Assembly: GCA_035291225.1 (NCBI GenBank)
Contig: DATDSO010000004.1
Span: 331,130 to 395,129 of the forward strand
Source: an archaeon
GTDB taxonomy: Archaea > Aenigmatarchaeota > Aenigmatarchaeia > Aenigmatarchaeales > JACQIB01
Length of the DNA: 64,000 bases
Direction: 5' to 3'
The notes beneath the pieces are model-generated. The model worked only from the letters and a program-made list of their open reading frames with translations. It had not been told where the DNA came from and did no database searches. Shown one piece after another: positions 5,241 to 63,355 of the stretch. A program made the position numbers and the translations under genes. Numbering within the stretch: position 1 is the first letter of the stretch; each line of letters starts with the position of its first letter.

Positions 5241-6257
5241 ATGATAATTAGAGCGCGCGCGCCGCTGAGGATAAGTTTTGGGGGCGGAGGCACTGATGTT
5301 GAACCATTTCCTACAAGGAAAGGCGGGTGTGTTTTAAATTCTACAATAGACAAATATGTTTACACAACTGTTAGCCCAAGGCCAGATGGAAAATTAGTTG
5401 TGAATTCTTTGGATATGGGAGTTTTTGAGGAGGTGAAAGATTTTGTCTATGGAAGCAAAATTGATTTGGTAAAAGCTGTGCTGAAAAATTTTTCTGTTTC
5501 TGGCGGGGCAGAAGTTTCAATAAATTCCGAGGCACCGCCAGGATCAGGTTTGGGGGGCTCATCAACTGTTGTTGTCTCACTTATAGGAGCATTACAAAAA
5601 TGGCTCGCCCGCCCAAGAGATAATTACCAAATCGCAAAACTTGCTTACAAAATAGAAAGGGAAGAGCTGGGAATAAAAGGCGGCTACCAAGACCAAGTGG
5701 CAGCTGCTTTCGGAGGTTTCAATTTTGTGGAATTTAATTCCGGAGGGAAATTTATAGTGACTCCATTGAGATTGGATGAAGATGTTGTCGATGAAATGCA
5801 GGCAAGCCTGCTGCTTTGCAATATAGGCCGCACGCGCAGTTCAAGCGAGGTAATAGAAAAACAAGTTAAATCTTTTGAAGCAGGAATAAATGAGAAATAT
5901 CTGGAAAAGATGAAAAAATTCTGCTACCAGATGAAGGACGCTTTGCTCACAGGAAATTTGGAGGAGTTTGTTTTTCTTATTGATGAATCATGGCAGGAAA
6001 AGAGAAAACTTGCTGAAGGAATCACAAACCCAGAGATTGATGCTCTTTATACAACCGCAAGAATGAGTGGGGCGAAAGCAGGAAAAGTTACAGGCGCCGG
6101 AGGCGGCGGTCACATGCTTTTCTATTGCGAGCATTTCAAAAAACCAGAAGTTATGCGCGCGCTTCTGAAGCGTGCTTTGGAACTAAATATAAATCTGCAG
6201 GTTGTCCCATTTTCATTTGACAACCACGGGCTCAAAACATGGAGAGTAAATATATGA
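5241..6257 (+). CDS. GHMP-family sugar kinase, D-glycero-D-manno-heptose 7-phosphate kinase-like (HddA-like)
   Basis: RAPLRISFGGGGTD N-terminus and PPGSGLGGSS ATP-binding loop typical of GHMP kinases; overlaps downstream gmhA-like gene. Confidence 0.7.
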   Translation: MIIRARAPLRISFGGGGTDVEPFPTRKGGCVLNSTIDKYVYTTVSPRPDGKLVVNSLDMGVFEEVKDFVYGSKIDLVKAVLKNFSVSGGAEVSINSEAPPGSGLGGSSTVVVSLIGALQKWLARPRDNYQIAKLAYKIEREELGIKGGYQDQVAAAFGGFNFVEFNSGGKFIVTPLRLDEDVVDEMQASLLLCNIGRTRSSSEVIEKQVKSFEAGINEKYLEKMKKFCYQMKDALLTGNLEEFVFLIDESWQEKRKLAEGITNPEIDALYTTARMSGAKAGKVTGAGGGGHMLFYCEHFKKPEVMRALLKRALELNINLQVVPFSFDNHGLKTWRVNI

Positions 6258-6859
6258 GGATTTTTATGATGGATTACATAAAGCAAAAATTTGCTGATAA
6301 CCGCGCGGCGATAGATTCAATTGATTTGGAAATAGTGGAAAAAGTTGCGCGGAAAATTTCTGAGGCACTGAAAAATGGAAATAGGGTTTTCTTTTTCGGA
6401 AACGGGGGCTCTGCTGCTGACTCCGCGCATATCGCAGGAGAATTTTTGGGAAAATATGATTTTGTCAGGAAGGCATTGCCTGTGCAGGCTTTGACAACAG
6501 ATATTGCGACTATAACTGCTGTTGCAAATGATTTCGGCTATGAAAAAGTTTTTGAGCGCCAAGTGGAAGCGCTAGCAAAAGGGGGAGACATACTTGTTGG
6601 ATTGAGCACAAGCGGAACTTCAAAAAATGTTTTTCTTGCTTTGCAAAAAGGAAAAGAAATTGGAACTTTCAATATTGGATTTTTTGGTTCAAGCGCCTCT
6701 TCAAGTAAAGAGGGGCATGCGGCGAAAATTTGCGATTTGAATCTGTTTGTTGAAAGCCCCTTTGTTCCCAGAATTCAGGAAGGTCACAAGCTTGTCGGCC
6801 ACACGCTCGCGGGGCTTGTTGAAAAAGAAATGATGGAATTCTGGGGAAGCAAAAAATAA
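6239..6859 (+). CDS. gmhA: Phosphoheptose isomerase-like SIS-domain protein (GmhA-like)
   Basis: GNGGSAADSAHIAGEF SIS motif and overall GmhA-like layout; start may be at an internal Met. Confidence 0.75.
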   Translation: MESKYMRIFMMDYIKQKFADNRAAIDSIDLEIVEKVARKISEALKNGNRVFFFGNGGSAADSAHIAGEFLGKYDFVRKALPVQALTTDIATITAVANDFGYEKVFERQVEALAKGGDILVGLSTSGTSKNVFLALQKGKEIGTFNIGFFGSSASSSKEGHAAKICDLNLFVESPFVPRIQEGHKLVGHTLAGLVEKEMMEFWGSKK

Positions 6860-21038: not shown

Positions 21039-21130
21039 AAGTGGAGAACTTCTCTCAAATTATGTGTCGTAGAAAAATTCCGCCGCTAAAAATTTCTGGC
21101 GTATTTATTTTTTCTTTTCACACACCAGTT

Positions 21131-21163
21131 GCGAGCGCGTTTGAGTTTACTCAACGCGCGAGC
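21131..21163. repeat. GC-rich palindromic intergenic repeat, copy 1
   Basis: gcgagcgcgtttgagtttactcaacgcgcgagc; first 20 nt recur in reverse complement at 38170-38204 with one mismatch. Confidence 0.55.
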
Positions 21164-21166
21164 TTA

Positions 21167-21961
21167 TCAGCTCCCTGTGCTTGAATAATGCTTCAGCCCG
21201 AATTTCCAAAAGCTGTATGCAACTGCGAAAGAAATTATTGCGACAAGCGGCGAAAGATATTGGAGCTGAGGCCAGATTCCTTTTCCTAAAATTGCGGCAG
21301 CTGGGAAATAATTTACGAAAGCGAGTGGCATGATAAAAGTCAGGAATGCCTTAATGTATTTATTGAAAATTTCCAAAGGGTAGTTTGTAAAATTTCCTGT
21401 TATCCAAACAATTTCAGTAATTGGACCGATTCTTGTTGTCCAGAACGCGAGCGTCGCTATTGCAAGAAAAATTGAATAAATTATCAGAGAGCCGCTTAAA
21501 AGAAAAATAGCAAGAGCGAAAAGCTTTTCCACGCTCCACACAACGCTAACAATTGGCATGCTTATTGCCAGCAAAGCAATTCCGCTTAATAAATCCCCAA
21601 ATCCATGTGTGTCAAAAGTAGAAATCATCATATATTTTATCGGCTTCATTGGCTGAACAAGAACTCTGTCAAGGCTGCCGCTGCGCACAGCTTCTTCAAC
21701 GCGCCAAGGAACTGTCCCTTTAAGAAAAGTATTCCACACTCCCCACGCAAAAACTTCAAGCGCGTATAGGAATAATAGCTCTTCCAATGTCCAGCCATTT
21801 ATATTTGGAATATTTTGCATAATAACCCAATAGAATAGGACGCCTATTACATTTGTGAGAACAAGCGCAAAAATTCCCAAAAAGAAATCTTCCGCATATT
21901 GAAAATCTTCGGCAATTCGCGCAACTGCAAATTTTTTCCACAACCTGAAAGTTTTTAACAT
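21167..21961 (-). CDS. ABC-2 type transporter permease subunit
   Basis: Polytopic membrane protein in operon with a second permease and an ABC ATPase; start set at internal Met (track ORF extends to 22006). Confidence 0.6.
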   Translation of the reverse strand: MLKTFRLWKKFAVARIAEDFQYAEDFFLGIFALVLTNVIGVLFYWVIMQNIPNINGWTLEELLFLYALEVFAWGVWNTFLKGTVPWRVEEAVRSGSLDRVLVQPMKPIKYMMISTFDTHGFGDLLSGIALLAISMPIVSVVWSVEKLFALAIFLLSGSLIIYSIFLAIATLAFWTTRIGPITEIVWITGNFTNYPLEIFNKYIKAFLTFIMPLAFVNYFPAAAILGKGIWPQLQYLSPLVAIISFAVAYSFWKFGLKHYSSTGS

Positions 21962-22044
21962 TTCAACCACCCCCCGAGGAGGGCTCCGCCCTCCTTCTGG
22001 GTTCATTCTCCCGAATTTCTGCTTCGCAAAATATAATTTTCATT

Positions 22045-22839
22045 TCAACCACCCTGTGAAAATATTCTTTTTTTCGCGCGGCTCCAAACAAAACCCACAA
22101 ATGCAGACAAAATCAAAATCCACAAAACCTGAAAGCCCAGAGCTGAAAAAATTTCCACGCCGGAGATTTTTCCAATGTAGATTGAAAGAGGGATATGAAA
22201 GGCTGCTGCGAATGGAAGCAGTTGAAGGATTGAAAAAAGCCATGCCGGGAAAAAATAAAGCGGCATGAGGGAGCCGGAAACCATGTCGCTAATCATGTTT
22301 CTGCTGAGCGTCAAGCCCCAGACTTTTCCGCCCGACCAGAAAACCCACATACCTGTTAGAAAAGCCAAAAGGAAATTTATCAGATATGAAAAAATCAGGC
22401 TGACGAAAAATAAAAGCGAGGCAGGCATAGAAACTTTTACAATTAAAACCGCGCCCAACAAAACAGGGAAGCCCCATGTCATAACTTTGTATCCTACAGC
22501 TCCGATATTCCCAAAAAGCCTGTAAAGCGGATAGCTCATTGGGATTGTAAGCTTTCGCGTTATTCCTCCCATGCGCACATCATACTCTATCTCACCTTCT
22601 ACGAAGCTCCAAGCAAGCGGCCGTATCAGCGAAGAAATTACCATGTAGGTTATCATAATTTCAAAAGTCATTCCATTTATTTCTGGAGTTCCTGCGGTTG
22701 TGAAAATCGCTTTCCATAAAAACCAGAATGCAATCAAAGTCAGGACAGACTGCGCGAGCCCGCCAATAAAATTCGTCCTGTAAGCAAGCATTTCCTTGAA
22801 AGAAGTTTCAGCAAGTTTCAAATATCTTCCCAGCATCAA
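22045..22839 (-). CDS. ABC-2 type transporter permease subunit
   Basis: About 6 TM helices; overlaps the upstream ABC ATPase gene by 4 nt. Confidence 0.6.
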   Translation of the reverse strand: MMLGRYLKLAETSFKEMLAYRTNFIGGLAQSVLTLIAFWFLWKAIFTTAGTPEINGMTFEIMITYMVISSLIRPLAWSFVEGEIEYDVRMGGITRKLTIPMSYPLYRLFGNIGAVGYKVMTWGFPVLLGAVLIVKVSMPASLLFFVSLIFSYLINFLLAFLTGMWVFWSGGKVWGLTLSRNMISDMVSGSLMPLYFFPAWLFSILQLLPFAAAFHIPLSIYIGKISGVEIFSALGFQVLWILILSAFVGFVWSRAKKRIFSQGG

Positions 22840-23837
22840 ATCCCCTCCCTGTAAATTCTCCTAATAATTTCCTCAATGTCAGGCTCCTCAATTTCAATAT
22901 CATGCACAGGATAGCGCGAGAGAATTTTTTTCAATGCTTCAGTCAGGGAAATTTTTTCAGTGTTGACGGAAATTTTTGCAGTATTTTCTTTTCTTTCTAA
23001 AATCTTTACTCCATTGATTGAAATTCTTTTCACAGGCTTGTGGAACTCAGCGAGCAAAATTCTTTCCTTTCCAAATTTTTTCTTTATCTCCGCGAACGAG
23101 CCATCGTAAATTATTTTTCCGCTGTCCACAATAATTATCCGCTCGCACAGCTCCTCAATGTCGCCGACATCGTGAGTTGTGAGAATAATCGTTGAGCCTG
23201 CTGAATTCACTTCTTTCAAAAACTTTCTCATGCGGTGCTTGCCTTCAACATCCAATCCAATTGTCGGCTCATCCAAGTAAACAATCGGCGGGCCGTGCAA
23301 AAGGCAGGCGGCAAGCTCGCAGCGCATTCTCTCGCCCAAAGAAAGCTTGCGCGTGGGCTGCTCCAGATATTTTTCTATTCCCAGAACCTGAGAAAATTTT
23401 TTCATGCGGGCGCGAAAATCTTTTTCAGGGATTTCATAAATTGCTTTCAAAAGTTCAAAAGTATTTTTCACAGGAATATCCCACCAGAGCTGGGTGCGCT
23501 GACCGAAAACAACTCCCATCTGGCGCGCATTTTTTTCGCGTTGCTCGTATGGAACCAAGCCATTCACAATTGCTTTTCCGTTCGTTGGCAAAAGAATTCC
23601 AGTGAGAATTTTTATCAGCGTGGACTTGCCCGCGCCGTTCGGCCCGATTATTCCAACAAATTCTCCGGGCGCGATTTTCAGGTTTATGTTTTTCAGCGCA
23701 GTGTGAATTTTATATTTTCTGCTAAACAAGCTCGCCAAATTTTCTTTCAATGTAGAGCCGCGCAAGTAGGTCTTGAATTCCTTGCTCAAGTCGCGGACAT
23801 CTATGATTGGGGCAATGGGCATTGTATCAGTCTCCAT
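22836..23837 (-). CDS. ABC transporter ATP-binding protein
   Basis: Walker A GPNGAGKST, signature LSLGERMR, Walker B VYLDEPT, H-loop TTHD. Confidence 0.85.
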   Translation of the reverse strand: METDTMPIAPIIDVRDLSKEFKTYLRGSTLKENLASLFSRKYKIHTALKNINLKIAPGEFVGIIGPNGAGKSTLIKILTGILLPTNGKAIVNGLVPYEQREKNARQMGVVFGQRTQLWWDIPVKNTFELLKAIYEIPEKDFRARMKKFSQVLGIEKYLEQPTRKLSLGERMRCELAACLLHGPPIVYLDEPTIGLDVEGKHRMRKFLKEVNSAGSTIILTTHDVGDIEELCERIIIVDSGKIIYDGSFAEIKKKFGKERILLAEFHKPVKRISINGVKILERKENTAKISVNTEKISLTEALKKILSRYPVHDIEIEEPDIEEIIRRIYREGI

Positions 23838-23960
23838 TTGTTTTGCTGCTTAAAAAATGCAGCGAAAAGAAAAATATTTTTGGCTCTAAGTTAAAAAAGA
23901 ATTAGTTGTATTTTACCATTGAAATCGCCTGCACTATATTGGGTTCGCAATTTAAAAAGC

Positions 23961-25136
23961 TTATAATTTTCTTTTTCCCACAAAACTGAAAACCAAAAAG
24001 TAAATCCAAATCACAACAGCCATGCCGATGAAGGCATAGTTATGATTTATTCCATAGAGAAATCCTCCCAACATTGGGCCTGTCATCAGTCCGAGTGAGC
24101 GGAATGAGCTTTCCAAGCCAAGAATAGTTCCGCGCTTACCTGAAACTTTTTTTGTCAGCAGCGATGGAACGGAAGGAAAAATAAGAGCATTGCCCAACAC
24201 GAAAACAGTCAGCGGAAGCAAAAGAGATATCCAATCTTTTGCAAAAAGCAGAGTCAAAAATCCCAAACCAGAAACAAGGAGTCCGGCTTGTATGAGTTTT
24301 ATTTCTCCGTATTTGTTAATGAATTTTCCGGTCAGGCCGCGCGAGAGAAAAATCAGCACACCTACATAAGTGAAAACTATTCCGAGCTGGGAGGAAGTGA
24401 AGCCGAGCCTCTCGCCGGTATATAGAGCAATAACAGCTTCATGCCCTCCAACCATGAAGCTCGCCATAAACGAAGATAGGAAAAGAAAAAGCATGTTTGA
24501 TTTCAGGTGCTGGAAAAAAGAAATTTCTTTTTCCACCAAATTTTTGCTTTCTGCCTTTTCTTTCAGTTCAGAAAGCTGGAAATTAACTGAAAATAAATTC
24601 GCGGCGCTCAATGCAAAAGAAAGTAAGAACGCGTCCCTTACAGAAAAATGCGAAGCCAAGCCCCCGAAAGCAGGGCCAAGAATAAAACCCGCGGACATAG
24701 CCATTCCAAAAAGCCCCATTACTTCGCCACGCTGTTTCTCAGTTGTGAAGTCTGAAAGAAGTGAAATGCATGAAGGAAAAACTGCTGCGGCAAAAACTCC
24801 GGCAAGCGCACGCGCAAACAAAATCATTGCAAGCGAATCAGAAAAAGCCAAAAGCAAATAAGAGGATCCGTAGCCTGCAACACCGGCCAGCAGAATTTTT
24901 TTTCTTCCAAATTTATCAGAAAGCTTTCCCATTATCGGGCTGAAAATCAAACTTGCAAACGCGAATGCCGAGACAATCATACCCAGTTCAATAGGCTTTG
25001 CTCCGATAGAGAGCGAATAAAATGGGAGTATTGGCAAAATAATTCCGAATCCAATGCTCGTCATTAAAACTGTAAAGAGGACTGTTTTTACTCCCGGAAC
25101 TTTTAGTATATCTTTGAATGACATTTTACCACCCAC
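23961..25136 (-). CDS. MFS-type membrane transporter
   Basis: 391 aa, 12 predicted TM segments, SDKFGRKK loop motif between TM2 and TM3. Confidence 0.8.
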   Translation of the reverse strand: MGGKMSFKDILKVPGVKTVLFTVLMTSIGFGIILPILPFYSLSIGAKPIELGMIVSAFAFASLIFSPIMGKLSDKFGRKKILLAGVAGYGSSYLLLAFSDSLAMILFARALAGVFAAAVFPSCISLLSDFTTEKQRGEVMGLFGMAMSAGFILGPAFGGLASHFSVRDAFLLSFALSAANLFSVNFQLSELKEKAESKNLVEKEISFFQHLKSNMLFLFLSSFMASFMVGGHEAVIALYTGERLGFTSSQLGIVFTYVGVLIFLSRGLTGKFINKYGEIKLIQAGLLVSGLGFLTLLFAKDWISLLLPLTVFVLGNALIFPSVPSLLTKKVSGKRGTILGLESSFRSLGLMTGPMLGGFLYGINHNYAFIGMAVVIWIYFLVFSFVGKRKL

Positions 25137-25192
25137 ACTAAAGAGTTAATTCCAAAATGAATATTTAAAAACTCCCAAGGCTAAATATTTTA

Positions 25193-25525
25193 GTGCCCCA
25201 AGATATTTCCTGTGTTGCCTGCGGCGGCAAGAATGTGCGCATGCGCGTATACAGTTCTACAAAATTTTTTGACGGCACTTGCTTGTGCTTGGACTGCGGG
25301 GCGGAGTTTTGAAAAAGATTTATAATGCTCCTTGGCATGAAACGTATTGCATTTTCATCACGGGGGCTTACCATACGAAAGAACCGAGCATTGATGCTAT
25401 GGTGCAACACCTTGTACGCGTAGCTAGACGAGTTGTATACGAACCTGGTGCCGGGCTTGTAGAGCGCAAGCCGCGCGACCCCTACGACCACGACTTTTCT
25501 GGTTTTTTCTCGAACGCAGGCTAAA
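25193..25525 (+). ncRNA. Candidate structured RNA locus (identity unresolved); 5' part could alternatively encode a 39 aa CxxC...CxCxxC zinc-ribbon peptide
   Basis: GC-rich island relative to flanks; nested long-range complementarity (gcctgcg 25218-24 with cgcaggc 25515-21; gttctacaa 25253-61 with ttgtagagc 25458-66; cggcac with gtgccg); overlapping long ORFs look non-protein-like. Confidence 0.25.
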
Positions 25526-25531
25526 CTTTTT

Positions 25532-27247
25532 TTACTTCCCCAATATCTCCCTAGCCAACTCCGCTTCGGCCGCATCGAATTCTTCCAAAACTTTCAAATC
25601 ATTTTCAGAAATAATTGTTTCCAAAACATCTCCTTCGGAAATTCCTCGCCCAACAACTGCGCCTTCAATTGAAATCGCAACGCGCTCGCCGGCTTTTGCT
25701 TTTTCAATTGTCTGGCTCTCCTGCTGGATTTGCCTTAGCGTGCCAATCTCATTTTTATTTTTCTGCAGGCGGCAGCCGGATTTTAATTCTCCTGACAGAA
25801 TTTCCACGCCAACAACAGCAGGCTCGCTCTGGCGGAAAACAAAGCCTGGTAAAATTCTCATACGGCAGGGCATTGTAATGCTCGCAAGCTTTTCCTGCTT
25901 CAATTTTTCCTTCTCGCTTTTCAGCCAAGAATCATACTCTTCAAACAATCTGTAAATAATATTGCTCGCCAGAATTTTCACTCCAGAATTTTTCACCTCG
26001 CTTAAAATTTCATCTCCAACAGGAACATTGAAAACAAAAATCAACTTTTTAAAATTATCTTTCAAAAGTTTTTGGTCCTGTATATCTCTTCTGGAAGCAG
26101 GCCCGACTTCTGCTTTTCTGATTGGGATTTCCTTTTGCTTGAGAATGTGAATCAAAGCTTCCAGTGATCCGAGAGTGTCTGCGCGTACAATTGCGCCTTC
26201 AATTTCCGACTCAAATTCAACTTCCTCAACTTCTGCTTTCAATTCCGCTTTTGCGGCATCAACTTCCTTTTCTGTTTTTACAGCGCGCACAGGCGAGCCT
26301 GCGACAGCGTTTTCAATTCCTGTTGCGGAAACTTTTATTCCAGCCGCAGCTGAAACAGAATCAACATTTTCAAAATCTTTTTCAACTCTCAATTCAGACA
26401 TTGGCTTTGGTTTTAGCAAAGCTTTCACTTTTCCCACAGCAGGCTCGCGGCCTCCTACAACCAGAAAATCCCCGCGGGAAATTTTTCCATCAAACAAAAT
26501 TACATCAATTGTTGTGCCAAGACCTTTGAAATCTTTTACCTCTAGAATAATTCCCTTTCCGCTCTCGCCGGAAAGTTCCAATTCTTTTTTCAAAAATGCT
26601 TGAGCCAAACCAGAAAGCATCATTATCAACTCGGGAATTCCCTCGCCTGTAATTCCGGAAACTGGGACAATAGCAACAGTTTTTTTGAAGTCAGAAACTC
26701 TGTCAAATCTTTCAGACTCAAACCCGCGCTGGGAAAGCTGGCCAAGAATTTTGTAAATAGCCTCGTCAGCTTTTTCTTTCACATGTTCGGGTTGCTTGTC
26801 CAAGCTTTTCAAAAAACTTTCTCCCTCATTTGCATGCCAACCTTCAACGCGGTCGATTTTTGTCGCAGCGACAATGAACGGAGTTTTAAACTGCTTTAGA
26901 AAATTCAGTGATTCATCAGTCTGCGGCTCAAATCCTTTTGTCACATCAACAACTAAAATCGCCAAGTCCGAGCATGAGCCCCCGCGTTTTCTCAAAGTTG
27001 TAAAGGCTTCGTGTCCTGGAGTGTCAATAAAAAGCAAACCTGGAATTTCCAAACTTATTTTTAATTTATCCAGAAGCTCGCCGGAAATTTTTCTTATAGA
27101 ATCAGAAGGAATTTCAGTTGCGCCTATTGCCTGCGTTATTCCGCCGGCTTCTTTTGCTGCGACAGCGCTCGACCTGATGCGGTCTAGCAAAGTTGTCTTT
27201 CCGTGGTCCACATGACCGAGAACGCAAACAATTGGCTGGCGCAACAT
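25532..27247 (-). CDS. infB: Translation initiation factor aIF5B (IF-2 homologue)
   Basis: G domain GHVDHGKTTLLD, DTPGHEAF, ATKIDR; domain order typical of aIF5B. Confidence 0.9.
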   Translation of the reverse strand: MLRQPIVCVLGHVDHGKTTLLDRIRSSAVAAKEAGGITQAIGATEIPSDSIRKISGELLDKLKISLEIPGLLFIDTPGHEAFTTLRKRGGSCSDLAILVVDVTKGFEPQTDESLNFLKQFKTPFIVAATKIDRVEGWHANEGESFLKSLDKQPEHVKEKADEAIYKILGQLSQRGFESERFDRVSDFKKTVAIVPVSGITGEGIPELIMMLSGLAQAFLKKELELSGESGKGIILEVKDFKGLGTTIDVILFDGKISRGDFLVVGGREPAVGKVKALLKPKPMSELRVEKDFENVDSVSAAAGIKVSATGIENAVAGSPVRAVKTEKEVDAAKAELKAEVEEVEFESEIEGAIVRADTLGSLEALIHILKQKEIPIRKAEVGPASRRDIQDQKLLKDNFKKLIFVFNVPVGDEILSEVKNSGVKILASNIIYRLFEEYDSWLKSEKEKLKQEKLASITMPCRMRILPGFVFRQSEPAVVGVEILSGELKSGCRLQKNKNEIGTLRQIQQESQTIEKAKAGERVAISIEGAVVGRGISEGDVLETIISENDLKVLEEFDAAEAELAREILGK

Positions 27248-37252: not shown

Positions 37253-38163
37253 TTTTTATGAGCATTCTAATAAACAAAGAAACAAAAGTTTTAATTCAGG
37301 GAATTACTGGACGCAGCGGGCAGGTTGCGCTCCACACAATGAAAGAATACGGGACAAAAGTTTTGGCAGGTGTGACTCCGGGGAAGGGTGGGCAGGAAGT
37401 TGAAGGGGTTCCGGTTTTCAATTCAGTTCACGAGGCTTTGAAAAAATTTCCGGAAATAAATTGCTCAGCAATTTATGTTCCGCCCGCAGCTTGCCGCGAG
37501 GCAGTGATTGAGGCGGTTTCAAATGGAATTAAATTGGTGAATGTAATTACAGAAGGAGTTGCGATTCAGGACACGGTTCAAATGCTGCGCTACGCAAAAC
37601 TTTATGGAGCGCGAATTGTCGGGCCATCTTCAATTGGAATTTTAACTCCGAAGCAATGCAAGATTGGAGTTCTCGGCGGCTCTGCTGTGGACACTGACAA
37701 AATTTATTTTCCCGGAAGCATTGGAGTGATTTCGAAAAGCGGAGGCATGACAAATGAAACTGCATGGGTTGTGCGTTCAGCTGGATTGGGCCAGTCAACT
37801 GTTGTTGGAATTGGCGGGGATGTGATTTTGGGAACTGATTTTGTGGATTTGCTGAAAATGTTTGAGGCAGACAAGGAAACAAAAGGGGTTGTAATTTTCG
37901 GAGAGCCTGGCGGGACTTATGAGGACAAGATTGCCGAGGCTGTCAGGAAAAAAGAATTCACAAAACCGATTGCTGCTTTTATTGCAGGAGTTTTCGCCGA
38001 GAGGCTTCCGCACGGAACGCAGTTCGGCCACGCGGGCGCGCTGATTGAAAATGGAAGGGGCTCGCCTGTGCAGAAAATTAAAATTTTGAAAGAGGCTGGG
38101 GTTTTAATTGCGGAAACGCATGATATGTTGGGGGAGGTTATAAAAAGAGCTATTGAAAATTAA
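37249..38163 (+). CDS. Succinyl-CoA synthetase alpha-like CoA-binding subunit
   Basis: KVLIQGITGRSGQ CoA-binding start and phosphohistidine loop GTQFGHAGA. Confidence 0.8.
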   Translation: MIFMSILINKETKVLIQGITGRSGQVALHTMKEYGTKVLAGVTPGKGGQEVEGVPVFNSVHEALKKFPEINCSAIYVPPAACREAVIEAVSNGIKLVNVITEGVAIQDTVQMLRYAKLYGARIVGPSSIGILTPKQCKIGVLGGSAVDTDKIYFPGSIGVISKSGGMTNETAWVVRSAGLGQSTVVGIGGDVILGTDFVDLLKMFEADKETKGVVIFGEPGGTYEDKIAEAVRKKEFTKPIAAFIAGVFAERLPHGTQFGHAGALIENGRGSPVQKIKILKEAGVLIAETHDMLGEVIKRAIEN

Positions 38164-38169
38164 TTAAAG

Positions 38170-38268
38170 GGCTCGCAGGTTTTCGTAAACTCAAACCCGC
38201 TCGCGACTAATGTGGAATAAAAATATTTTCACACATTAGTTAGCGAGGCTCATGGGTTTACCCTGAGC
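38170..38268. other. Structured intergenic region: GC-rich repeat copy 2 plus two stem-loops
   Basis: ggctcgcaggttttcgtaaactcaaacccgctcgc (38170-38204); inverted repeats actaatgtg/cacattagt (38207-38240) and gctcatggg/accctgagc (38248-38268). Confidence 0.5.
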
Positions 38269-38296
38269 CGAGCAAATCAAAATAAGTTGTGATAAC

Positions 38297-55056: not shown

Positions 55057-55085
55057 TTTTTATTTCACCTGAAATAATTTCCAAT

Positions 55086-55129
55086 GGCTCGCGCGCAGAG
55101 CAAGCTCATGCGCGCTCGCTATTGATATG
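55086..55129. repeat. GC-rich intergenic repeat, copy 3 (30-73 nt upstream of aCPSF1 start)
   Basis: ggctcgcgcgcagagcaagctcatgcgcgctcgctattgatatg; shares ggctcgc...cagagc...gcgcgct(t)cgctattgat[ag]tg with 63226-63280. Confidence 0.55.
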
Positions 55130-55325
55130 TAAAAAATATCCCCAAAAATTCTGTATGCAAAAATGTTTTTATTTTTTTCTCAGTAAATTTCAAAAAATCG
55201 TACTAAAAATTTACGTGTATGAGATTTAGATTTGCTGTAGTCTGCTTCAAGTAATCAGAATTTTCTAAAAGAATAATTGCAGAGGGGATTTATAAAGATT
55301 AGCCACGGTTGAGACCGACGGGACG

Positions 55326-63225: not shown

Positions 63226-63280
63226 GGCTCGCATCCAGAGCTCAGCGCGAGGTAAACCTGCGCGCTTCGCTATTGATGTG
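63226..63280. repeat. GC-rich intergenic repeat, copy 4 (42-96 nt upstream of the 62846-63184 gene)
   Basis: ggctcgcatccagagctcagcgcgaggtaaacctgcgcgcttcgctattgatgtg; shares both end motifs with copy 3. Confidence 0.55.
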
Positions 63281-63355
63281 TGGAAAGAAAAAAACAAAGA
63301 CTGAGATATTTTGGCGCAAAATTATTTTTGCAATACATATTGATATTCAAGTTCT

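Follow-up and report, generated by a model that had tools for sequence, protein, structure and literature searches.

A predicted zinc-ribbon microprotein gene and a strain-specific tail convergent with aIF5B in an Aenigmatarchaeota genome

A stretch of about 330 nt that is richer in GC than the DNA around it, carries nested complementary words and lies between two protein-coding genes of an archaeal genome raises the question of whether it specifies a medium-sized structured RNA or, instead, one or more small proteins. The original prediction put the structured RNA first and a 39-residue zinc-ribbon peptide second, as a fallback. In the following, the two proposals are weighed together with the alternatives that emerged in comparing the locus with its relatives; positions refer to the window, i.e. 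the whole 64,000-nt stretch of DNA that was analysed. The fallback is right and the main idea is wrong: the best explanation as a whole, to which we give a probability of about 0.72, is that of a plus-strand small-gene locus convergent with the aIF5B gene and not that of a structured RNA gene.

The locus and the case for a structured RNA

The locus fills most of a 395-nt gap between two minus-strand genes, those of an MFS transporter (391-aa ORF, 23961-25136; PF07690, E 3e-60) and of aIF5B/IF-2 (571-aa ORF, 25532-27247; matches to GTP_EFTU, IF-2 and GTP_EFTU_D4), and the Pfam matches of both neighbours bear out the position originally described. Among 185,579 species representatives, the nearest aIF5B proteins (58-61% identity) belong to Aenigmatarchaeota and to unclassified archaeal MAGs, which points to a DPANN-type host with no close relative among the sequenced species. 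ARAGORN did not find a tRNA in the whole window. The GC content of 25193-25525 is 0.498, compared with 0.417 for the window, so that the locus is GC-rich as claimed, but it is not exceptional: it lies at the 98th percentile of 333-nt segments, and at least 12 other separate 330-nt segments of the window, several of them inside long ORFs, are richer (0.503-0.539). High GC in one segment of a moderately AT-rich genome, as here, does not by itself mark an RNA gene.

The view of the 330-nt stretch, taken whole, as a single structured RNA, e.g. an archaeal SRP RNA or RNase P RNA, draws on the GC content above the window average and on three nested complementary stretches. These all exist, although three of the four coordinate ranges checked had been off by one: gcctgcg is found at 25217-23, gttctacaa at 25254-62 and ttgtagagc at 25457-65, whereas cggcac starts at 25273 and gtgccg at 25448. 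Their abundance, however, is what dinucleotide shuffling yields by chance. The locus holds 44 helices of at least 7 bp (Watson-Crick and GU pairs), as compared with 45.7 +/- 6.8 in 60 dinucleotide shuffles, and seven helices of at least 9 bp, as compared with 7.2, and its longest helix measures 12 against a shuffle mean of 11.1. Folding energies tell the same, with MFE z-scores over 343 nt of only -0.82 on the plus strand and +1.65 on the minus strand; for the 3' 219 nt alone, the corresponding values are -1.49 and +0.93.

The Rfam scan that had been suggested as a check gave no archaeal SRP RNA or RNase P RNA match. With cmscan at the gathering score the whole 64-kb window was free of Rfam matches and, when 25050-25650 was scanned at E<=10 with lax filters, only a spurious plastid intron match appeared, outside the locus. 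Reading by eye for the conserved regions CR-I to CR-V of RNase P RNA gave two short partial likenesses (GGGGCUUACC and CGAAAGAACC), in the wrong order. Furthermore, each of the three proposed long-range helices has its 5' arm in conserved coding sequence, the 5' 120 nt of the locus evolving as a protein-coding sequence, and the relatives are devoid of the 3' arms: these partners are missing from L082, L083, L089 and L090, which leaves no conserved pairing and, since the 3' 219 nt as a whole are missing in relatives, the proposed helices cannot be conserved. What the locus shares with archaeal SRP RNA and RNase P RNA is limited to their size range (~300 nt) and to being richer in GC than the average of the genome, whereas it differs from them in having neither a covariance-model match nor excess structure, and in that its conservation across relatives ends at the coding block. 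With no Rfam match, folding and helices equal to those of shuffles and only the first 120 nt conserved, the proposal of a medium-sized structured RNA has to be abandoned, and the chance that it is right is, in our estimate, negligible.

The 39-codon reading frame and the ORF opposite to it

Contigs of relatives were fetched through the exact aIF5B protein, which is found on many contigs, and through the variants in its 90% cluster, and their loci were compared with the window by blastn. The sole part common to the relatives corresponds to 25181/25183-25314 of the window, namely to a 39-codon plus-strand ORF (25193-25312, GTG start, TGA stop) together with about 10 nt on its upstream side and 2 nt on its downstream side. 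Four lineages keep this block, with rearranged flanks in all of them. At the nucleotide level, the block is 94% identical to that of the window in L082, L086, L087 and L091, 87% in L089 and 74% in L083, the aIF5B identities being 86%, 87% and 84%, respectively.

Four alleles of the encoded protein are thus available: VPQDISCVACGGKNVRMRVYSSTKFFDGTCLCLDCGAEF in the window, a Q3/E4 variant in L082, VPSDLSCLLCGG... in L089 and VPSDLSCVLCRSKNVKMRVYSSTKFFDGTCICLECGAEF in L083. All four keep the GTG start and the TGA stop, and 30 of the 39 residues, including all five cysteines, are invariant. Nucleotide differences at codon positions 1, 2 and 3 number 0, 0 and 7 between the window and L082, and 9, 5 and 21 between the window and L083; the pN/pS ratio is 0.04 for the window and L082, 0.17 for the window and L089 and 0.27-0.30 for the window and L083, with an overall range of 0.04-0.33. 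Two adjacent serine codons have even changed from AGT TCT to TCA AGC with no effect on the protein. The replacements that do occur are conservative (mean BLOSUM62 from +0.5 to +2.0 across the comparisons); those between the window and L083 are eight (Q/S, I/L, A/L, G/R, G/S, R/K, L/I and D/E), with a mean of +0.6. The codon usage of the ORF scores poorly (0.05 and -0.02). The peptide originally proposed to start at GTG 25193 is therefore encoded by an ORF exactly as described and is well supported by the four-lineage comparison; judged by its pattern of substitution, 25193-25312 is a real gene under purifying selection. Because its homologues are confined to a narrow lineage, this evidence rests on four alleles.

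The longest ORF of the locus lies on the opposite strand. It encodes 136 residues (P0001; 25165-25575, minus strand) and is the one called in the source contig and in most source assemblies; were it the real gene, the zinc-ribbon frame would be its antisense shadow. Its pN/pS over the conserved block is indeed low (0.29-0.36), but the two frames score alike because their wobble positions coincide. The nature of the replacements separates them. Between the window and L083, the antisense frame accumulates 13 replacements, mostly radical (R/F, P/L twice, W/E), with a mean BLOSUM62 of -1.7, and comparisons with multiple replacements give means from -1.2 to -1.9, in contrast to the few and conservative changes of the sense frame. 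Moreover, conservation ends at the zinc-ribbon start and stop, so that the N-terminal half and the C-terminal end of the antisense product are not conserved, the N-terminal half being encoded by the non-conserved 3' part of the locus and non-homologous in every lineage. The antisense ORF also shares 44 nt with the 3' end of aIF5B, has no Pfam match and obtains codon and Markov scores (-0.12 and -0.17) like those of spurious ORFs. We judge it to be a gene-calling artefact on these sequence features, and its being the true gene to be very improbable. For annotation, this implies that public assemblies mostly display a gene that appears spurious, with the apparently real 39-codon gene left uncalled in most source assemblies; in one related lineage it is called, though only in a form lengthened at the N-terminus by a non-conserved extension (P0013).

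The 39-residue protein contains two CxxCG knuckles, C7-V-A-C10-G (residues 7-11) and C32-L-D-C35-G (residues 32-36), whose cysteines and glycines are invariant in all alleles except for Gly11, which is replaced by Arg in L083. A single-sequence AF2 model places, at low confidence (mean pLDDT 56), a beta-hairpin at 15-30 between the knuckles, with strands 15-21 and 24-30, which would be the layout of a zinc ribbon. The protein is thus predicted to be a one-domain zinc-ribbon microprotein, which would bind zinc through the two knuckles.

Upstream of the ORF, a TATA-like box (ATATTTAAAAA) is found on the plus strand at 25161-25171, i.e. at -32 to -22 from the GTG. Homology with the window ends about 10 nt before the GTG, yet the position of the box is kept in the four lineages, a T/A-rich box being present at -30 to -22 in L082 and L089 (TTTTTTAAG) and in L083 (TTTTATAAG). 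As a putative promoter, it would serve the zinc-ribbon gene and possibly the divergent MFS gene too. The box is centred about 26-27 nt before the GTG and there is no Shine-Dalgarno sequence; the usual archaeal TATA-to-start distance would place the transcription start at about the GTG, so that transcripts would begin at or next to the start codon, which suggests a leaderless mRNA. GTG-initiated leaderless mRNAs are a minority. In the short contig L084, of the same strain, the box of the window is missing as the result of a 40-nt deletion (25143-25182) between CTAAA repeats.

A strain-variable spot and the tail behind the zinc-ribbon gene

What surrounds the conserved block changes from lineage to lineage. 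In the L082-type contigs, the ABCE1/RLI gene directly precedes the 39-codon ORF and a gene for a 215-aa orphan protein follows it; with respect to L082, the 4.1 kb of the window at 21052-25182, with ABC-2 transporter genes and the MFS gene, are an insertion. In L089, an ABC ATPase gene is found before the ORF and the MFS gene is absent. In L083, a hairpin element comes next after the ORF, then a relic of the aIF5B 3' end and, beyond it, an inserted DUF2683/ParE toxin-antitoxin pair. In some relatives, the zinc-ribbon gene sits among translation genes (S10, a KH-domain protein, ABCE1/RLI and aIF5B). The slot behind it is occupied by the 215-aa gene in L082, L085, L086, L087, L089 and L091, and a homologue search with this protein was empty as well. 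L085 carries it although its DNA is 99.74% identical to the window upstream, the breakpoint falling in the last ~55 nt of aIF5B, and L090 is 99.64% identical to the window up to the aIF5B stop codon and continues with unrelated DNA. The region past the aIF5B stop is thus, as read from these alignments, a recombination hot spot, and the zinc-ribbon gene would be a conserved anchor in a heavily recombining neighbourhood, whose flanks differ even between strains 99.6-99.7% identical. That three downstream cassettes are found next to an essential gene, that of aIF5B, among strains so similar upstream may interest students of DPANN genome flux. In 80 loci downstream of aIF5B from GTDB species representatives, no DNA or protein similarity to the locus was found.

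While tracing the L083 arrangement, a family of hairpin motifs of about 57 nt was met, which consist of a T-rich segment, CACACAYYAGTTRGCGAG, a GC-rich stem with a GTTTAC-type loop and CGAGC. Five copies are present in the window and further ones in L082 and L083; the stem shows compensatory changes in five of its eight pairs, an inverted pair of hairpins (38163-38281) has a folding z-score of -6.6 on both strands, and an Rfam match was not found for any copy. By covariance model, the motif is absent from the zinc-ribbon gene and the DNA behind it.

In the window, the slot between the stops of the zinc-ribbon and aIF5B genes is taken by a tail of 219 nt (25313-25531), which is identical in L081, L084 and L088 and confined to this strain. 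Its place is taken by the 215-aa gene in the six contigs named above; L083 has the hairpin element and the DUF2683/ParE pair there, and L090 unrelated DNA. The tail is unique within the window, a second copy being found neither there nor in the relatives, and no similarity to it was detected in phage and plasmid collections. Near its end, two T runs can be read on the plus strand (25503-25533), T6 at 25503-25508 and T7 at 25527-25533, the latter overlapping the aIF5B stop codon by 2 nt. Oligo-T has a known role in archaeal transcription termination, and by analogy the T6 and T7 runs could serve as plus-strand terminators.

Several possible origins or functions of the tail were tried and rejected. 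It does not resemble a decayed copy of the 215-aa gene (no tblastn similarity), and a relic of the aIF5B 3' end like that of L083 is absent from the window; it is not a copy of the hairpin family described above (none in 25137-25531 by covariance model). A programmed -1 frameshift that would join the zinc ribbon to the frame behind it was dismissed, as the -1 frame of L082 stops after three codons (TTG AAA GCT TAA), and so was a C/D-box sRNA: a perfect C box (GUGAUGA) is present on the minus strand at ~25355-25361, but there is no D or D' box (CUGA) within 70 nt.

The tail also contains a candidate orphan ORF on the plus strand, orf71 (25309-25524), which extends from TTG 25309 to a TAA at 25522-25524. 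The start overlaps the zinc-ribbon TGA as TTGA, alternative starts are GTG 25285 and TTG 25279, so that the frame comprises 71-81 codons, and 3 nt separate the stop from the T7 run and 7 nt from the aIF5B stop. When codon usage is scored with 47 long ORFs of the window as the training set, orf71 reaches 0.21 bits/codon, at the 20th percentile of real-gene segments and about equal to the MFS gene, a value exceeded by two of 144 spurious nested ORFs; with a second, cross-validated, 3-periodic and second-order Markov score, it reaches 0.13-0.16, at the 17-24th percentile of real segments, and about 1% of spurious ORFs score higher. The original prediction had called the long overlapping ORFs of the locus not protein-like, which holds for the 136-aa antisense ORF but not for this plus-strand frame (81 aa at its longest), whose codons are gene-like. 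The frame is annotated in one NCBI MAG, as a protein of 79 aa (P0012). A homologue search returned only this entry, i.e. orf71 itself, by a word-based method that can miss distant relatives, and no homologue was found in viral contigs, Pfam, NCBIfam, PDB, PADLOC or PHROGs. As all copies of the tail are identical, orf71 offers no comparative signal.

Whether orf71 is a gene or a chance frame in a non-coding tail (a shared 3' untranslated or terminator spacer, or a recombination leftover) depends, therefore, on how these features are weighed. The tail is confined to one strain and swapped wholesale in sister strains, with a breakpoint in the last ~55 nt of aIF5B, and neither protein nor DNA searches return homologues. 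A Shine-Dalgarno-like GGTGA, which other genes of the window have, was not found before orf71, its start codons are only TTG or GTG, and its single-sequence AF2 model is of low confidence (pLDDT 57). A 71-codon frame open by chance is not rare at 50% GC, and the first minus-strand T run past the aIF5B stop is met only at ~25314-25318, so that transcription of aIF5B may run on across the tail from end to end. All this would fit non-coding DNA. On the other hand, orf71 is beaten in the codon and Markov scores by only ~1% of similarly sized spurious ORFs, its start and stop are placed tightly against the upstream stop and the T7 run, and gaps so long in this compact window usually contain small genes. 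We consider a non-coding tail unlikely, though a good way from negligible, and lean slightly, at little better than even odds, towards an orphan gene in the tail that shares its transcript with the zinc-ribbon gene. If so, the common transcript would most likely extend to the T6 and T7 runs, and the probable product of the tail would be another orphan protein, 71-81 residues long, whose translation would possibly take place by termination-reinitiation at the TTGA overlap.

The tail could also be an independent, lineage-specific small non-coding RNA of ~160-185 nt, which would be transcribed from a BRE/TATA-like sequence (GAAAAAGATTTATAAT, 25311-25326), start near 25349 and end at the T6 and T7 runs. 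This sequence makes a good archaeal promoter-like arrangement (GAAAAAGA-TTTATAAT) followed by the two T runs, the segment 25350-25499 is the GC-richest part of the locus (0.54, 99th percentile of 150-nt segments) and the plus strand folds slightly better than shuffles. However, the z-score of -1.49 given above is not significant, with 18 of 200 shuffles folding at least as well, Rfam has no match at E<=10, manual reading of either strand found no C/D or H/ACA box arrangement, the want of a second copy in the window or in the relatives leaves no covariation to support an RNA, and the TATA-like box that L082 has at the equivalent place belongs to a protein gene. Such an RNA appears improbable to us.

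Returning to the tail as the site of an orphan protein gene, a more ambitious reading would join the zinc-ribbon microprotein and whatever gene has been swapped in behind it (orf71 here, the 215-aa gene in the sister strains) into a two-gene module. If true, a constant zinc-finger adaptor or regulator would be combined with an exchangeable effector, e.g. in conflict or defence, which would explain how the 39-codon gene has stayed intact amid turnover on all sides. We regard such a module as a long shot. The locus bears on no long-standing open question and is, in our view, an ordinary small-protein locus, poorly annotated and situated where strains differ.

The predicted zinc-ribbon protein among known small zinc-finger proteins

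Searches for homologues of the zinc-ribbon protein outside the lineage were empty. None was found among 5.8 billion clusters; a HMMER scan of 1.84 billion representatives returned the same gene with its upstream extension (P0013) and one irrelevant match, a 991-aa repeat protein; a scan of JGI metagenomes with the zinc-ribbon alignment recovered a single locus, of the L082 lineage; and viral contigs yielded no homologue. In Pfam, the best matches were DUF7564 (E 0.085) and Zn_ribbon_8 (E 0.45), both far below the cut-off, NCBIfam gave no match and a PDB profile search nothing relevant. The best that PHROGs offered, phrog_5516 (E 0.0028), is of unknown function and of no use, and PADLOC provided nothing usable for the proteins of the locus. 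The protein is, by these searches, a new sequence family of a known kind.

By description only, it is reminiscent of small zinc-ribbon parts of the archaeal information machinery, namely the RNA polymerase subunit Rpo12/RpoP and the ribosomal proteins eS31/eL40, which, with ~40-50 residues, are also four-cysteine zinc ribbons; the position of its gene among translation genes in some relatives is a further likeness. Those proteins have basic C-terminal tails, which the zinc-ribbon protein lacks, and are, to our knowledge, universal in archaea, whereas the present one is confined to one narrow lineage and matches neither family in Pfam or NCBIfam.

The closest parallel is found in the haloarchaea, in which small proteins of this kind have been studied. 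The predicted zinc-finger microproteins of Haloferax volcanii are outlined as proteins of at most 70 aa with two C(P)XCG motifs (PMC11241148, PMC6562870), and the present protein, with 39 residues and the motifs CVACG and CLDCG, answers to that description. Like HVO_2753 and HVO_0758, as presented in the accounts of the H. volcanii proteins (PMC6562870, PMC10716476, PMC11241148), it is well below 70 residues and consists of little beyond one pair of zinc knuckles, and is often overlooked by gene callers. It differs from the H. volcanii microproteins in that no sequence homology to any of them is detectable, in its DPANN rather than haloarchaeal host and in an additional invariant cysteine, Cys30. 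With regard to zinc, the title of a 2024 paper among those just cited points to several non-binding members of the C(P)XCG class.

A second parallel is Brz of Halobacterium salinarum, described as a small zinc-finger protein that regulates bop (PMC2253796). Like Brz in that account, the protein is a small, here predicted, zinc-finger protein from a supposed intergenic region, but similarity between the two sequences was not detected and, because the neighbours differ between strains, a regulatory link of the zinc-ribbon gene to them cannot be argued. By analogy with the haloarchaeal proteins, our best guess is that of a zinc-finger microprotein that would bind nucleic acids or proteins as they may do, and with which the growing class of archaeal zinc-finger microproteins would gain a member from the DPANN.

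The 3′ end of the aIF5B gene

The final approximately 55 nt of the aIF5B gene (window 25532-27247, - strand), at about 25536-25590, together with everything beyond the stop at 25532, are a recombination hot spot. Two related contigs carrying aIF5B depart from the window at the 3′ end of this gene, namely L085, which matches it at 99.74% identity across 4.2 kb, and L090, at 99.64% across 2.8 kb; all 11 mismatches between L085 and the window fall within those final approximately 55 nt. Past the stop the downstream cassettes of the two contigs differ, L085 carrying a 215-aa orphan gene and L090 unrelated DNA that includes a partial 168-aa ORF. Contig breaks also occur at the aIF5B 3′ end in several assemblies (L084 and L088).

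A further arrangement is found in L083, in which a DUF2683/ParE toxin-antitoxin pair (5759-6300) is inserted at the aIF5B 3′ end, at the position corresponding to window 25531-25565. The insertion supplies a new C-terminus to aIF5B (...NLAREILKK), and on its far side 35 nt of the former 3′ end survive as a relic, with 88% identity to window 25531-25565. Such an arrangement is the hallmark of elements that insert into the 3′ end of a gene and replace that end.

Gene content around the zinc-ribbon gene

The slot of the 219-nt tail that separates, in the window, the stop of the 39-codon zinc-ribbon gene from that of aIF5B (25313-25531) holds a gene for a 214-215-aa protein in L082 (5722-6369, - strand), with homologues in L086, L087, L089 and L091. 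The protein is itself an orphan, with just two close clusters among 5.8 billion and no match in Pfam, NCBIfam, PADLOC or PHROG. The stop of its gene overlaps that of aIF5B, which is three residues longer (GKMKN) in the strains with this gene.

On the other side of the zinc-ribbon gene, window 21052-25182 is a 4.1-kb insertion relative to L082, L086, L087 and L091, comprising three ABC-2-type transporter genes and the MFS gene; in these four contigs the zinc-ribbon gene directly follows ABCE1/RLI. In L089 the ABC ATPase is present and the MFS gene is absent.

RNA genes and a repeated intergenic hairpin

ARAGORN found no tRNA gene in window 1-64000, and no Rfam family reached its gathering score across the 64 kb, an absence that is conceivable in a small archaeal genome.

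An intergenic motif of approximately 57 nt is repeated five times in the window, at 21114-21171 (+), 38163-38221 (-), 38225-38281 (+), 55079-55136 (-) and 63232-63287 (-), and also occurs in L082 (9360-9418) and L083 (6299-6355). In the layout of the motif, a T/A-rich run is followed by CACACAYYAGTTRGCGAG, then by a GC-rich hairpin whose GTTTAC-type loop is conserved, and finally by CGAGC. Among six copies compared, compensatory double changes are seen at five of the eight stem pairs, and the stem could be lengthened by the flanking GCGAG/CGAGC via tandem G.A pairs. For the two inverted copies at 38163-38281, the folding z is -6.6 on either strand. The settings vary, two copies lying immediately upstream of genes and others between convergent gene ends or beside synteny breaks. 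Rfam returned no match for the motif, which may be a REP/REPIN-like element or a small RNA or protein-binding hairpin of unknown type.
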